64,000 nt of DNA from a phage. The DNA is taken from sequence record PZ452578.1. The stretch is one strand, 5' to 3'. The notes beneath the pieces were generated by a model. The model worked only from the letters and a program-made list of their open reading frames with translations. It did no database searches and was not told the origin of the DNA. Position 1 is the stretch's first letter. The number at the start of each line of letters is the position of its first letter. Shown here piece by piece: positions 16,608-37,960 of this stretch. The position numbers were made by a program, and so were the translations under genes.

Positions 16608-16637
16608 ATAGTACCATGGAAGAACAGGGATGTAAAC
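16608..16637 (-). promoter_or_regulatory. T4-type early promoter (-35 GTTTACA, -10 TACTAT) with A/T-rich UP module
   Basis: 17-nt spacer; part of repeated module. Confidence 0.55.
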
Positions 16638-33282: not shown

Positions 33283-33312
33283 ATAGTACCACAGTATGCT
33301 TTGGTTGTAAAC
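33283..33312 (-). promoter_or_regulatory. T4-type early promoter for motA
   Basis: GTTTACA, spacer, TACTAT; same module as 16608-16637. Confidence 0.55.
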
Positions 33313-34845: not shown

Positions 34846-34982
34846 AAATTTACCATACTAGTGAATGTAGTGCCATAATAACATCAGAAATGAAAAGCAC
34901 GACTTGAATTAATCCGAACATTACTCCATAATATAGTGCTACCAATAAAGTAGCAAGGGCTAATGAATAGCCCAAGATTTTC

Positions 34983-35141
34983 TTAATCATTAGTAGATAA
35001 CAACACAAATGTTAAATATGCACACATACCCTGGGCTAAAGCTTGTGAAAACACACTGCTAGCATCGATACAGATAGTTAAAACACATGCTACTATCCAA
35101 CAAATAAATGAAATAACTCCTAATAATTTTGCGATATTCAT
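34983..35141 (-). CDS. small membrane protein (52 aa), paralogue of the ac-like ORF
   Basis: Internal ATG 35141 with GAGGAG SD (track ORF 34983..35171 starts at TTG); shares SVF-QA-AQG core with the 35152-35307 ORF. Confidence 0.45.
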   Translation of the reverse strand: MNIAKLLGVISFICWIVACVLTICIDASSVFSQALAQGMCAYLTFVLLSTND

Positions 35142-35151
35142 AATATTCTCC

Positions 35152-35307
35152 TCAACTATTTTTAGAACCAATGTACGCGAATAATGATAAAATCGCTAAT
35201 ACGCCCTGAGCTGATGCTTGCAAAAATACTGAAGTTTCTCCAGTTATTACTGTTCCGATGCATAAAAAGAACCAACAGAAAAAGGCTATACCGTGAACAA
35301 ATTTCAT
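35152..35307 (-). CDS. ac: small membrane protein (51 aa), candidate ac
   Basis: 51 aa (length I recall for T4 ac), position next to stp; GAGGAAAAT SD; below track cutoff. Confidence 0.4.
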   Translation of the reverse strand: MKFVHGIAFFCWFFLCIGTVITGETSVFLQASAQGVLAILSLFAYIGSKNS

Positions 35308-35314
35308 ATTTTCC

Positions 35315-35395
35315 TCACTGGCGTCCGAAGACGCCTTTGGTTTTAAGATTGTTACGATAGAACTGCATCACATGTTCGTTATGGAAATTACTCAT
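35315..35395 (-). CDS. stp: Stp peptide (26 aa)
   Basis: Hand translation gives [26 protein letters not shown], matching my memory of T4 Stp; ATG overlaps ndd stop. Confidence 0.7.
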
Positions 35396-35853
35396 TAATA
35401 TGCCTGCAAAACAAATTTAAAGTTATCAGCCAACATACGGTTCATTTCTTCAAGTGTTTGATACTCAGAATGATGATTACGAGTAAACGCCAAAGCTAAC
35501 TGACCTTTTCCAAATCCCGTCGTCAGAGGTTTCATCTTAGAAGCAGGCAGATAAAATACTGTGTATGGAACATTGTTATTTGCAATAGTACGTGCAAGCT
35601 GAGACCGACGTTGACGAATATGACTTAGAACTGCACTGAATCCTTGCTTAGAACGCTGATTACCTACATAAAATCGTGCTGACACACATGGATTACTAAA
35701 TGGACGACCATCTAATTTACTTACTAAAAAGTAAAATCCAGGTTTAGATAAAATATCTTTATGCGGAGTTCCCAAAAACCACTCACCACCCTTGATTGTA
35801 CCAATAACAGTAGCGCCTGCGTTGTTCAGATCAGTAACAGTCATGTATTTCAT
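35395..35853 (-). CDS. ndd: nucleoid disruption protein Ndd (152 aa)
   Basis: From internal ATG 35853 ([15 protein letters not shown]...) with GAGGAAATTAAT SD; track ORF extends to 35907. Confidence 0.75.
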
Positions 35854-35911
35854 ATTAATTTCCTCTAAATTATTTTCTACTCCATGGCCGCATGAATACG
35901 CGGCCATTAAA

Positions 35912-36127
35912 TTAATCGTCGCAGTCGACGCTCAATTCCCAAAACTCTTCTACAGTATAAGTTTCAGTATCATTTTCAATACAGAAACGTTCATTACTGT
36001 TATTTGCTAAAGTAGCATTAACTGTCGGTTTCTCGCTAGTGCTCTTAAGAGGTGAAATACGAATTAACTGATCACCGTTATCTAAACAGAAAATTTCACC
36101 AACTTTTACATCTTTAAAACTTTTCAT
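35912..36127 (-). CDS. hypothetical protein (71 aa)
   Basis: Track ORF with GAGGTGA SD. Confidence 0.45.
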
Positions 36128-36242
36128 AATTCACCTCAAGGAGTATAAAATCCGAATGCAGTTGTTGACCATCCCATCCAATATGGAAAATTTGCACCAA
36201 TGTAAAACATAAGAATATAAAACCAACCGCTCAGCAAATTCA

Positions 36243-36440
36243 TCATTTTACACCGTTCCAAATTGTTTCAACCACAGATTTTAAACCATTTTGATGAATA
36301 TCCATTCCGACTACCGCCATCAAATAAATTCCAACTACAACTGAACCTAAGGCAAAAATCAGCATGAAAATGAATAAAGCCGGAAAAATATTATCGAAAA
36401 ACCATTCAATAAATGTAAAAGCACTGCGTTTACGCTTCAT
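36243..36440 (-). CDS. small membrane protein (65 aa)
   Basis: Internal ATG 36440 with GAGGAAA SD; hydrophobic core. Confidence 0.4.
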   Translation of the reverse strand: MKRKRSAFTFIEWFFDNIFPALFIFMLIFALGSVVVGIYLMAVVGMDIHQNGLKSVVETIWNGVK

Positions 36441-36447
36441 ATTTTCC

Positions 36448-36561
36448 TCACATAAATCCAAAGTAAACGTTTAATACATCAATCATTAAAACGATTGGGA
36501 ATATACTCAAAACTACTAGTATTATAACTACATTCCATATAGCTTTAACAATCTTTTTCAT
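36448..36561 (-). CDS. small membrane peptide (37 aa)
   Basis: Internal ATG 36561 with GGAGGA SD; upstream part of track ORF contains the promoter 36589-36619. Confidence 0.35.
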   Translation of the reverse strand: MKKIVKAIWNVVIILVVLSIFPIVLMIDVLNVYFGFM

Positions 36562-36588
36562 TTTCTGTTCCTCCGTAGTTGATAGTTG

Positions 36589-36619
36589 TATAGTACCACA
36601 GAGGAACAGTCTTGTAAAC
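36589..36619 (-). promoter_or_regulatory. T4-type early promoter in ndd-denB region
   Basis: GTTTACA and TACTAT. Confidence 0.45.
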
Positions 36620-36835
36620 AACTTTTTAAAAATATTCGTAATAAATGTGAATACCAACTACTACCGCTGAAACCTGTGCAACCCACCACGCACAAGCAAT
36701 AAGTACAGAATTCAAAATTTTCATAATAACCTCATCACAAAAGTAAATGTTAAACAAATTAATGGAATACTAATTAACCAAACAAAACACCACCATAATG
36801 AACTCATAGTTCAATCTCAACGATTTTCATTTTAC

Positions 36836-37042
36836 TCAATAATCCGCTAAAAGATCGACGATTGTATCACGAAGACACTTATTCGCAATACGTTTAAGAG
36901 CAATTTCAGTTTCTGGAGCATTTTGAATAATCATTGAATTCAATTCAGCCTCAGCAAACTGAAGTTCTTTAACTAATTCAGCTTTATATTTTCCTTGCCC
37001 TTTCTTAGCTTTTGCTCGTTTTAATTCAGCTGTAGTAAACAT
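36836..37042 (-). CDS. hypothetical protein (68 aa)
   Basis: Internal ATG 37042 with GGAGAA SD; track ORF N-terminus overlaps promoter module. Confidence 0.4.
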   Translation of the reverse strand: MFTTAELKRAKAKKGQGKYKAELVKELQFAEAELNSMIIQNAPETEIALKRIANKCLRDTIVDLLADY

Positions 37043-37074
37043 TTTATTCTCCAAATCCGTATCAGTTGATAATT

Positions 37075-37104
37075 GTATATTACCACAGTCCTTGTGGTAT
37101 GTAA
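37075..37104 (-). promoter_or_regulatory. T4-type early promoter in ndd-denB region
   Basis: GTTTACA and TAATAT plus UP-like module. Confidence 0.45.
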
Positions 37105-37125
37105 ACCGTTTTGTGAAAAAATTTT

Positions 37126-37683
37126 TTAAATGGAAAGATACCATCCATTGTAGTTGCTTTTTCTTACAACCTTACGAAGGTCTTCTCTATCACCGATGAA
37201 TTTCGGAGTGTACTGGATGACACCTGGATGAATTTCTTTAGTGTTGAATATAATTATACAGTCAGCGACTTGATGATTTAGAATGGGCCCTAGATTTATT
37301 CCAGAACCATATGGATATTCTCCGCTGCATCCGGTTGTTACCGAAATCCATCGTGAGTCAGTTTGATGTGTTTTGACTTCTACACGAAGCCCACAGTATT
37401 TTGGATGCGCCAATACATCCCATGCATATGTGTACGGATCATCGACATCTTCTTGACCTTTATTAACATACCCGCTTAACCAATCTGCTACAAAAAACTC
37501 TGCGTACACAGCGATACGACATCTTTCGATAACTTCTGCCTTATCCTGGTTCGGGTTTTGTTTTAAAGAGTATCTTGCTGTATCAGCAATTTTGACTTTC
37601 ATTTCACTAGTCAAGTCACTGTTCGATAGGGTAAATGTCGGAATCTGAAATAGTCTCTGTAGCCCCGGATTCGTTTTCTGCAT
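37126..37683 (-). CDS. denB: endonuclease IV (185 aa)
   Basis: 185 aa as T4 DenB, position adjacent to rIIB. Confidence 0.7.
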   Translation of the reverse strand: MQKTNPGLQRLFQIPTFTLSNSDLTSEMKVKIADTARYSLKQNPNQDKAEVIERCRIAVYAEFFVADWLSGYVNKGQEDVDDPYTYAWDVLAHPKYCGLRVEVKTHQTDSRWISVTTGCSGEYPYGSGINLGPILNHQVADCIIIFNTKEIHPGVIQYTPKFIGDREDLRKVVRKSNYNGWYLSI

Positions 37684-37740
37684 TTAAACTTTCCTTTATG
37701 TCGGAATCACTGATATTCATATAAATCATAATTTCTCTTA

Positions 37741-37759
37741 AAACAAAAGGGCCGAAGCC
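37741..37759 (-). terminator. stem-loop / terminator GGGCUUCGGCCC plus UUUUGUU
   Basis: Identical hairpin also at 37967-37978. Confidence 0.55.
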
Positions 37760-37765
37760 CTTATT

Positions 37766-37960
37766 TTATTTGAATTGCGCAATTCTTTTCTCTAGACATT
37801 CAGCATAAGATTTCATTGAGATGAACTGTGAAAGCAGCAGTTCTTGCTCAACTGCACTAACTGTTAGAAACTTTGCGCTTTCTAAAAATTTACTCAGTGC
37901 ATTAATTTTGAGCATTAATTGATCGTATTCTTCTTTTACTCGTGCTTGATAACCTAACAT
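37766..37960 (-). CDS. hypothetical protein (64 aa) flanked by identical stem-loops
   Basis: Track ORF; AAGGAAAATT SD; hairpins at 37748-37759 and 37967-37978. Confidence 0.45.
   Translation of the reverse strand: MLGYQARVKEEYDQLMLKINALSKFLESAKFLTVSAVEQELLLSQFISMKSYAECLEKRIAQFK

Follow-up and report, generated by a model that had tools for sequence, protein, structure and literature searches.

A dense set of small, probable immediate-early genes between ndd and denB in a Tequatrovirus genome

The window, the whole 64,000-nucleotide stretch that was analysed, is from a Tequatrovirus genome with ∼97% identity to RB3, RB32, and ESh33. Its minus strand at 35912–37042 is the counterpart of the T4 ndd–denB interval, is collinear with T4, RB3, RB32, and PP01, and is matched by 573 phage records. 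A sequence-only reading had placed at least five short open reading frames (ORFs) between ndd and denB, which is borne out by our count of seven ATG-initiated ORFs and one 8-codon ORF, an apparent gene remnant. From the denB side the order is ORF-A, ndd.6, ndd.5, ndd.4, a 65-aa gene, ndd.2, and ndd.1; the same reading had suspected two further ORFs missing from the list, of 31 and 28 codons, and these correspond to ndd.5 (32 codons) and ndd.6 (28 codons). The genes and signals are given below, starting from the denB side (SD, Shine-Dalgarno sequence).

37077..37131, minus strand: predicted early promoter Pe-1, with an A/T-rich upstream region, −35 GTTTAC (37106..37101), TGg, and −10 TAATAT ending at 37077
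37042..36836, minus strand: ORF-A, 68 aa; SD GGAG; phrog_4535, E = 5e-24
36804..36830, minus strand: 8-codon mini-ORF (MKIVEIEL-stop), 5 nt past the ORF-A stop; its TGA overlaps the ndd.6 ATG (ATGA)
36807..36721, minus strand: ndd.6, 28 aa; no SD of its own; phrog_8851, E = 3e-17
36724..36626, minus strand: ndd.5, 32 aa; SD GAGG; start codon overlapping the ndd.6 stop codon (ATGA); phrog_5011, E = 4e-26
36590..36640, minus strand: predicted early promoter Pe-2, likewise with an A/T-rich upstream region, −35 GTTTAC (36619..36614), TGg, and −10 TACTAT ending at 36590
36561..36448, minus strand: ndd.4, 37 aa; SD GGAGGA; N-terminal MKKIVK; phrog_3098, E = 2e-21
36440..36243, minus strand: 65-aa gene; SD GAGGA; phrog_2401; Pfam DUF7248 (PF23906)
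36246..36136, minus strand: ndd.2, 36 aa; start codon overlapping the stop codon of the preceding 65-aa gene; lacks its own SD; phrog_4135, E = 2e-24
36127..35912, minus strand: ndd.1, 71 aa; SD GAGGTG; phrog_2183, E = 3e-38
35884..35907, minus strand: GC-rich 10-bp hairpin, AUGGCCGCGU-AUUC-AUGCGGCCAU, separating ndd.1 from ndd and not followed by a U-run

The comparison with T4 ndd.1–ndd.6 that had been proposed from the letters alone reveals a collinear array. T4 ndd.1, ndd.2, ndd.2a/ndd.3, ndd.4, ndd.5, and ndd.6 (T4p269–T4p275, NC_000866) share position, order, and strand with the window genes, and all six products are 95–100% identical to the window peptides (tblastn); on these grounds we judge the array to be the T4 ndd.1–ndd.6 set. 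The region consists of genes already named and annotated, under names that date from the T4 genome project. T4 and the window also have the two early promoters and the PHROG families in common. They differ in three respects: the window carries the 68-aa ORF-A, which T4 lacks, in the space from ndd.6 to denB, ndd.4 is 37 aa in the window and 42 aa in the T4 annotation, and the T4 reference has ndd.3 (26 aa) and ndd.2a (40 aa) where the window has the single 65-aa gene. The last difference comes down to one base missing from the T4 reference, with the 65-aa gene intact in re-sequenced T4 genomes. Because those genomes do not show the one-base gap, the split is evidently a one-base artefact.

The ORF adjoining denB is an accessory gene missing from T4. 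It is 96–99% identical to the accessory gene annotated as RB32ORF266c, RB3_270, or PP01_277 (phrog_4535) and differs from it in nothing material; that gene also occupies the slot beside denB, with the same early promoter ahead of it. ORF-A is found in only 129 phage records, along with versions at ∼63% identity from phages of Salmonella and Proteus, and has a pN/pS of 0.07. Its product is predicted to be soluble and hydrophilic, with three helices in an AlphaFold model (pLDDT 78.6, shallow alignment). Many database entries instead list a 101-aa product, whose start lies within denB and whose frame crosses the promoter. We favor the 68-aa form because it has an SD, because homologs are 68–69 aa long, and because alignments start at residue 1 or 2. 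The mini-ORF that follows corresponds to the last 8 codons of an 87-aa ORF, intact in SA20RB, G9062, WFbE185, and dhabil, and by this match is evidently a remnant of that 87-aa gene.

The remaining genes are widely distributed. ndd.6 is present in 494 records at at least 90% identity and has a syntenic Mosigvirus homolog at 54% identity (pN/pS 0.14), while ndd.5 is present in 491 records, every one at least 90% identical, with variable sites distributed 2/1/11 over the codon positions (pN/pS 0.09). For ndd.4 there are 597 records and same-position homologs in Dhakavirus (61–64%) and Kanagawavirus (58%). Its cross-genus pN/pS is 0.28–0.32 over three genera, with synonymous sites near saturation, and its value inside Tequatrovirus, 0.69, comes from 7 variable sites only. 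The 65-aa protein comprises the N-terminal residues MKRKRS, ∼27 hydrophobic residues, and a conserved C-terminal GLKSVxxTIWNG. It matches DUF7248 at 71.9 bits (cut-off 27) over profile positions 4–57 of 58, found no match in a sequence search against the PDB, and has a pN/pS of 0.08. The ndd.2 peptide is hydrophobic, carries no charge, and abounds in Gly and aromatic residues; its 519 records include Klebsiella-phage copies at 44% identity, its motif NxPYW(M/L)G recurs in a PEi20 ORF, and its pN/pS is 0.14. The acidic, soluble ndd.1 product has 854 records spanning several genera, with variable sites distributed 3/5/23 over the codon positions (pN/pS 0.08); its AlphaFold model is all-β but of low confidence (pLDDT 59.7, shallow alignment).

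The sequence-only reading had also described two interleaved early promoters. Pe-1 and Pe-2 do fit the T4 early type, a class described previously (PMC2988021), and the orthologous sites in SA20RB are both annotated as T4 early promoters. They are two of 13 GTTTAC-N-TGnTAnnnT sites in the window, all on the minus strand, and the copies at 37106, 36619, 33312, and 16637 have ∼60 nt of flanking sequence in common. The Pe-1 and Pe-2 sequences are present and conserved in this phage; the measurement of early RNA is from T4 (PMC9697503 supplement).

In our model, host σ70 RNA polymerase would start transcription at these two very strong T4-type early promoters. Pe-1 would drive unit 1, a chain in which ORF-A is followed after 5 nt by the 8-codon remnant, which leads through an ATGA into ndd.6 and through another ATGA into ndd.5. 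Pe-2 would drive unit 2, in which ndd.4 and the 65-aa gene lead through an ATGA into ndd.2 and then ndd.1, the hairpin, and ndd, the last being reached by read-through. Translation of ndd.6 and ndd.2, the two ORFs without an SD of their own, would probably proceed by termination-reinitiation coupling. The hairpin between ndd.1 and ndd carries a terminator annotation in SA20RB. It lies, with a second stem-loop at the 3′ end of ndd.1, in an 86-nt minus-strand stretch (35850–35935) with a folding energy of −25.3 kcal/mol (z = −3.47, 0/200 shuffles as stable), figures that describe the whole stretch and not the hairpin alone. No RNA family was matched in 35300–37800 (Rfam). RNA structure as the cause of a low-diversity stretch at 36351–36530 was considered separately and is unsupported (z = −1.66).

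Several of these genes are over-extended in the ORF track, as had been suspected from the letters. The ORFs at 36448..36657, 36836..37144, 36243..36461, 36136..36261, and 36626..36757, as well as ndd from 35907, run through promoter or leader sequence, and the same over-extension is found in public annotation, in the 101-aa versions of ORF-A and in a 513-nt ndd.

Gene content in the interval varies among related phages. ORF-A may be there or missing, the 87-aa gene may be whole or reduced to its remnant, and each of the four pairings occurs; the T4/PST exchange of ndd.4/.5 in this interval is one of the published PeSL examples (PMC4122927). The interval resembles the PeSL (promoter-early stem-loop) cassettes (Arbiol 2010, PMC2839356; Comeau 2014, PMC4122927) in its repeated, similar early-promoter/leader units and in its small flanking ORFs that vary between close relatives. 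In contrast to PeSL cassettes, a stem-loop directly upstream of the promoter is lacking at Pe-1 and Pe-2: no terminator-like hairpin was found from the denB stop to Pe-1 or from the ndd.5 stop to Pe-2, and the sole strong hairpin is that at 35884–35907. The visible junctions also lie at leader-SD-ATG sequence and at ATGAAA microhomology, and not at a hairpin. Recombination at repeated promoter-leader-SD-ATG cassettes may reshuffle the gene content of the array between related phages.

The products had been described as mostly single-TM peptides, which agrees with Kyte-Doolittle hydropathy: five of the seven are hydrophobic, four of them clearly transmembrane, and two are soluble. The best 19-residue windows score 2.31 for ndd.6, 2.17 for ndd.5, 3.05 for ndd.4, and 2.71 for the 65-aa protein, against a transmembrane criterion of 1.6 over 19 residues; ndd.2, at 1.17, falls below it, and the ORF-A and ndd.1 products are hydrophilic. 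The first four are thus clear single-pass peptides as predicted from hydropathy. The hydrophobic peptides would enter the host inner membrane in the first minutes of infection, with the basic N termini of ndd.4 and the 65-aa protein in the cytoplasm, an insertion and topology derived solely from hydropathy and charge. Existing annotations as “outer membrane” or “periplasm” conflict with this inner-membrane reading and are unsupported by any homology, Pfam, or fold match tested.

Small hydrophobic peptides are poorly detectable by tryptic mass spectrometry. In T4, every ndd.x transcript is early, and proteomics detected the Ndd.1 protein early and scored the five hydrophobic peptides “NA” (PMC9697503 supplement). 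CRISPRi-ART knock-down in T4 classed all ndd.x genes as “Not Fit”, with no fitness cost (PMC11879866 supplement 15), and the sa-delta-9 deletion, which spans 52.1 through denB, is viable at ∼50% of the wild-type phage production rate (PMC6071114). Searches of the literature turned up neither ribosome profiling of T4 nor work on the function of an ndd.x gene. The T4 neighbors Ac, gp52.1, and Stp offer a parallel, being 26–52 aa, early, non-essential, and lost together in sa-delta-9. Ac and gp52.1 are likewise small and hydrophobic, whereas Stp is a 26-aa non-membrane peptide, and the initiation region of ac and 52.1, GTGAGGAAAATATGAA, is also used by the 65-aa gene. Sequence similarity between these three proteins and the ndd.x peptides is not detectable, and phenotypes have been assigned to Ac (acridine sensitivity) and Stp (PrrC activation) but to none of the ndd.x peptides.

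The sequence-only reading had pointed out strong SDs (GGAGGA, GAGGAAA), and ORFs with an SD exceed expectation. A 4-mer SD precedes five ATG ORFs that are 25 codons or longer, whereas 1000 dinucleotide-preserving shuffles averaged 0.24 such ORFs and never gave more than 3, an excess that marks the ORFs as more than chance. Each of the seven has a full-length match to a PHROG family (E = 3e-17 to 3e-38 for the ndd set). Pooled pN/pS is 0.10 in frame versus 2.18 and 1.40 in the two alternative frames (about 25 loci read, out of roughly 600 Tequatrovirus genomes), comparable with ndd (0.10) and denB (0.04). Syntenic homologs of ndd.6, ndd.4, ndd.2, ndd.1, and the 65-aa gene are found in Mosigvirus, Dhakavirus, and Kanagawavirus, and peptide motifs are kept across genera though synonymous sites are saturated. 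Purifying selection, as read from these alignments, evidently acts on the proposed frames. By the selection, cross-genus, and shuffle results, the view of the interval as a long untranslated, promoter-bearing spacer between denB and ndd, AT-rich intergenic or leader DNA whose frames are open by chance, appears effectively refuted. We give it almost no credence, despite the very small size of the ORFs, the absence of an SD from two of them, and inconsistent gene calling, which leaves ndd.4 or ndd.6 unannotated in RB3, RB32, G9062, and SHFML-11.

Wider searches gave few matches. Pfam and NCBIfam scans of the seven proteins matched only DUF7248, on the 65-aa protein, the rest being far below threshold. 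A phmmer search of 1.84 billion representative proteins yielded 8 matches, three of them short phage-like relatives and the others hydrophobic stretches in giant proteins, and Foldseek with the Ndd.1 and ORF-A models against the PDB and BFVD assigned no fold (best E = 0.78). IMG/VR and metagenome scans added 5 and 6 further loci, close relatives throughout. As a whole, the locus is best explained, with good probability, as the Tequatrovirus ndd–denB “hyperplastic” interval, in which seven genuine immediate-early genes are densely packed.

Genuine translation could still leave the peptides functionless if the ORFs were merely coupling devices that keep ribosomes on the early transcript, avoid Rho-dependent polarity, and ensure delivery to ndd. 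The packed or overlapping ORFs (ATGA, ATGATG), some of them SD-less, would suit such a role, as would the retention of the 8-codon remnant exactly where the ndd.6 overlap is preserved and the knock-down without fitness effect. However, amino-acid purifying selection is as strong as in ndd, and motifs persist across genera in ndd.4 (KAIWN...IFPIV...ID), the 65-aa protein (GLKSVxxTIWNG), and ndd.2 (NxPYWxG). Given Pe-2, moreover, ndd expression needs no unit 1, and we regard a pure coupling role as very unlikely. We also consider it unlikely that the hydrophobic peptides are toxin-like membrane damagers, akin to holins or to type I toxins such as Hok, that depolarize or permeabilize the host during shut-off. 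They do resemble type I toxins in size and hydrophobicity, and cloned T4 immediate-early small genes are often host-lethal (PMC6071114), but early depolarization would harm a phage that depends on an energized host for ∼25 minutes. ndd.6 can be aligned to the Hok transmembrane segment at 39% identity (E = 0.003 for the single pair), but this alignment has 32% gaps and is insignificant at database scale. With this gapped, TM-only alignment, no match to Pfam Hok/Gef even at E ≤ 1, and, at 28 aa, no counterpart of the periplasmic C-terminal domain of Hok, ndd.6 was rejected as a Hok/Gef family member.

The hydrophobic products would most likely be accessory inner-membrane effectors. Their action on host envelope proteins or lipids would be non-essential and condition-dependent and could serve, for instance, host take-over, exclusion, or counter-defence. 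An early T4 factor that maps between genes 52 and rIIB sustains host phospholipid synthesis and stimulates phosphatidylglycerol synthesis, an effect gone in sa-delta-9 (PMC6071114). That at least one hydrophobic peptide is this factor, or else neutralizes a membrane-acting host defence missing from laboratory strains, is a speculative and rather improbable extension. The most plausible candidates for the phospholipid factor would be ndd.4 or the 65-aa DUF7248 protein, the hydrophobic products with the broadest conservation. The sa-delta-9 phosphatidylglycerol effect cannot be assigned to ndd.x, as a dCTPase/EndoIV/Alc mutant also loses it (PMC6071114).

As a discovery the array carries little weight, its genes having long been named and the interval being a published example of modular shuffling. 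Its value is as a clean test case, in which peptide genes of 28–37 codons are validated by comparative data alone while their public annotation is inconsistent, with genes missing, over-extended, or split. The ndd.x peptides are dispensable in laboratory hosts, yet purifying selection has kept them in hundreds of phages, and in this they bear the signature of condition-specific host-interaction factors.

The top matches to a 2.4-kb query centred on the feature, among them Shigella phage ESh33, RB3, RB5-RB10, RB14 and RB32, are ~97% identical, which places the window by nucleotide identity within Tequatrovirus, as a close relative of T4 and not T4 itself. The query matches 573 phage records, 460 of which cover at least 80% of it at one place. 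In T4, the ndd-denB interval contains ndd.1, ndd.2, ndd.2a, ndd.3, ndd.4, ndd.5 and ndd.6, and the annotations of RB32, RB3 and PP01 have these genes plus one extra adjoining denB, corresponding to the 68-aa ORF-A. The sequence-only reading of the region as a run of small, mostly single-TM peptide genes between ndd and denB, to be compared with T4 ndd.1-ndd.6, is supported, and the feature is one already known and already annotated. Coding density across the interval is ~90%.

Features of the ndd-denB interval
37683..37126, minus strand: denB
37106 (GTTTAC) to 37077 (end of TAATAT), minus strand: early promoter Pe-1, with TGg
37042..36836, minus strand: ORF-A, 68 aa, SD GGAG
36830..36804, minus strand: 8-codon ORF MKIVEIEL*, 5 nt past ORF-A; its TGA overlaps the ndd.6 start codon
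36807..36721, minus strand: ndd.6, 28 aa
36724..36626, minus strand: ndd.5, 32 aa, ATGA overlap, SD GAGG
36619 (GTTTAC) to 36590 (end of TACTAT), minus strand: early promoter Pe-2, with TGg
36561..36448, minus strand: ndd.4, 37 aa, SD GGAGGA
36440..36243, minus strand: 65-aa gene, SD GAGGA
36246..36136, minus strand: ndd.2, 36 aa; its ATG overlaps the TGA of the 65-aa gene
36127..35912, minus strand: ndd.1, 71 aa, SD GAGGTG
35907..35884: 10-bp GC hairpin between ndd.1 and ndd
35853..35395, minus strand: ndd

The seven ORFs are real genes. The interval contains five ATG ORFs that reach 25 codons or more and carry a 4-mer SD, whereas 1000 dinucleotide-preserving shuffles gave a mean of 0.24 and a maximum of 3. 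All seven products have full-length PHROG family matches (E 3e-17 to 3e-38), and the 65-aa protein scores 71.9 bits against Pfam DUF7248 (cut-off 27). Among ~21 Tequatrovirus loci, variable sites fall mostly at the third codon position (positions 1/2/3: ndd.1, 3/5/23; ndd.2, 5/3/15; 65-aa gene, 8/2/19; ndd.5, 2/1/11). The corresponding pN/pS ratios are 0.07 for ORF-A, 0.14 for ndd.6, 0.09 for ndd.5, 0.08 for the 65-aa gene, 0.14 for ndd.2 and 0.08 for ndd.1, compared with 0.10 for ndd and 0.04 for denB; the other two frames at the same sites give 2.18 and 1.40. The ndd.4 ratio within the genus, 0.69, comes from only 7 variable sites, too few substitutions. Its same-position homologues, 64% identical in Dhakavirus and 58% in Kanagawavirus PEi20, give pS of 0.75-0.81 and pN of 0.22-0.26. 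Mosigvirus WFbE185 has a syntenic, unannotated ndd.6 homologue, 54% identical with start and stop conserved, and PEi20 homologues are recognisable for ndd.2 (motif NxPYWxG) and the 65-aa protein (C-terminal GLKSVxxTIWNG). Purifying selection on the ndd.x and ORF-A peptide sequences is thus strongly supported, and the run of small SD-preceded ORFs proposed from sequence inspection is confirmed by the PHROG matches, the excess over shuffles and the in-frame selection. In a collection of 50,697 phage records, ndd.1 occurs in 854, ndd.4 in 597, ndd.6 in 594, ndd.2 in 519, the 65-aa gene in 500, ndd.5 in 491 and ORF-A in 129.

Nucleotide diversity among 20 unique sequences (window and 20 relatives) dips to 0.010-0.020 at 36351-36530, with flanks at 0.03-0.07. 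The dip includes a synonymous deficit in ndd.4 (3/37 third positions vary) and the best generic sigma-70-like site of the region, TTTACA-18-GATAAT (36419..36390); an RNA fold as its source was not significant (z = -1.66). Similar short motifs at the ndd.4 N terminus (KAIWN) and the 65-aa protein C terminus (LKSVxxTIWNG) are both kept as far as Edwardsiella phage PEi20 (locus L015, 2501-2617 and 2887-3081).

The 65-aa gene corresponds to two T4 annotations. The T4 reference NC_000866 (locus L004, 2933-3129) reads ATGAA-CGT, with one base absent in codon 2. Among 24 loci compared, the window and the others containing the gene read ATGAAGCGT or the synonymous ATGAAACGT, except T2 PV648363, which has ATGAAGAGT (no indel, but K-R becomes K-S at codon 3). 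The re-sequenced T4 genomes KJ477684 and OZ209057 also have ATGAAGCGT and an open 65-aa frame, and apart from this T2 record the frame is open in the other relatives compared as well. The presence of the base in re-sequenced T4 and in relatives indicates that "ndd.3" and the short "ndd.2a" are one-missing-base artefacts of a real 65-aa gene. The "ndd.3" artefact is still spreading, for example into CRISPRi guide design. In T2 PV648363 (locus L016, 1501-1635), GGA to TGA at codon 45 cuts off the conserved C-terminal motif.

Start assignments also differ between records. The 42-aa T4 ndd.4 starts at an ATG within the GGAGGA SD (L004, 3250-3265); the window has ACG there (36561-36576), which supports the 37-aa form as the conserved product. 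Database 101-aa versions of ORF-A start within denB and extend across Pe-1. The 86-nt stretch containing the GC hairpin (35850-35935) folds better than 200/200 shuffles (z = -3.47). In 35854-35907, the mechanical ORF list and the RB32 and RB3 annotations (loci L001 and L002; 513 nt) start ndd at an ATG within this hairpin; the SD-preceded start at 35853 gives a 152-aa Ndd. Three further small hydrophobic ORFs (34850-35307) follow directly after ndd and stp. Two of these, 52.1 and ac, look mutually paralogous, and the initiation region GTGAGGAAAATATGAA is common to ac and the 65-aa gene in the window and is carried by 52.1 in most relatives. The label "naphthalene 1,2-dioxygenase" on Ndd, Ndd.1 and nearby small ORFs, found in many phage records and extending to "Escherichia coli" and "Shigella sonnei" ones, is evidently a propagated mis-annotation.

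A generic promoter scan recovers both Pe-1 and Pe-2, with no overall enrichment (12 sites, 10.8 expected). Searching the 64-kb window with the T4-specific pattern GTTTAC-N14-16-TGnTAnnnT gives 13 sites, 13/13 on the minus strand, including these two, and the SA20RB annotation marks their orthologues as T4 early promoters, bearing out the two promoters noted earlier. Both agree with the UP/-35/TGn/-10 architecture of T4 early promoters (PMC2988021), and their A/T-rich upstream regions and ~20-nt leader are common to copies at 33312 and 16637. At the ndd.4 promoter of the window, the -10 and leader, TGGTACTATACAACTATCAACT (36590-36619), match same-genome promoters at 33283-33312 and 16608-16637 and differ from the orthologous T4/RB32 promoter, TGGTACTATTACCCTATCAACT, suggesting that promoter cassettes have undergone gene conversion.

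The ndd.5-denB slot is variable among relatives. In T4 it holds an 8-codon remnant and ndd.6, to which the window, RB3 and PP01 add ORF-A; SA20RB has ORF-A and an intact 87-aa gene, and in G9062 and UPWr_E2 the 87-aa gene is present but ORF-A is not. The 87-aa gene is also intact in Mosigvirus WFbE185 and Dhakavirus dhabil, as well as in G9062, and its last eight codons (...NSNEMKIAEIEL) are exactly MKIVEIEL. The deletion leaving this remnant runs from one ATGAAA repeat to another, and the ATGA stop/start overlap with ndd.6 survives it. ORF-A is inserted exactly 3' of the shared leader ...GGAGAATAAAATG, so the junctions fall within a repeated promoter-leader-initiation cassette, as expected under the PeSL modular-shuffling model, of which ndd.4/.5 in T4 versus PST is a published example (PMC4122927), although, unlike PeSL, neither Pe-1 nor Pe-2 is accompanied by a stem-loop. 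In Shigella phage ESH35 (locus L017, 1347-1626; record marked UNVERIFIED), ac is fused directly to ndd.4 by a natural deletion in which stp, ndd, ndd.1, ndd.2 and the 65-aa gene have been lost, so that this field isolate can dispense with half of the array and with ndd itself.

In T4, time-resolved transcriptomics and proteomics class ndd.1-ndd.6 all as early RNAs; at the protein level a profile, also early, is given for Ndd.1 alone among the ndd.x products, and the hydrophobic peptides are scored "NA" (PMC9697503 supplementary tables). A literature search found no T4 ribosome-profiling study. By CRISPRi-ART, ndd.1, ndd.2, ndd.2a, ndd.3, ndd.4, ndd.5 and ndd.6 are all "Not Fit" (PMC11879866 supplementary file 15). 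The sa-delta-9 deletion of 52.1, ac, stp, ndd, ndd.1-ndd.6 and denB still allows phage production at ~50% of the wild-type rate but abolishes the stimulation of phospholipid and phosphatidylglycerol synthesis after infection; a dCTPase/EndoIV/Alc mutant likewise lacks this stimulation (PMC6071114).

Ndd.6, Ndd.5, Ndd.4 and the 65-aa protein each have one hydrophobic segment (19-residue Kyte-Doolittle maxima 2.31, 2.17, 3.05 and 2.71). Under the positive-inside rule, the basic N termini of Ndd.4 (MKKIVK) and the 65-aa protein (MKRKRS) predict an N-in orientation. Ndd.2 has zero charged residues and abundant W, Y, F and G; with a maximum of only 1.17 it is hydrophobic, yet has no confidently predicted transmembrane helix. 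Ndd.1 is acidic (15 D/E versus 7 K/R) and modelled poorly (pLDDT 59.7), and ORF-A is predicted to form three helices (pLDDT 78.6); fold searches with these two models gave nothing usable. The database names "outer membrane protein" and "periplasmic protein" reflect inherited predictions, and none of the homology, Pfam or fold matches tested backs them. Reading the hydrophobic peptides as Hok-like toxins is not supported.

A purely coupling role for the small ORFs is unlikely, given the conservation of their residues and motifs. Considered together, the data strongly support the seven ORFs as immediate-early genes, with expression predicted from two strong sigma-70 promoters in two translationally coupled chains. 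We propose that the hydrophobic products would enter the host inner membrane during the first minutes of infection, where, in an accessory and condition-dependent role, they may act on envelope proteins or lipids as effectors.
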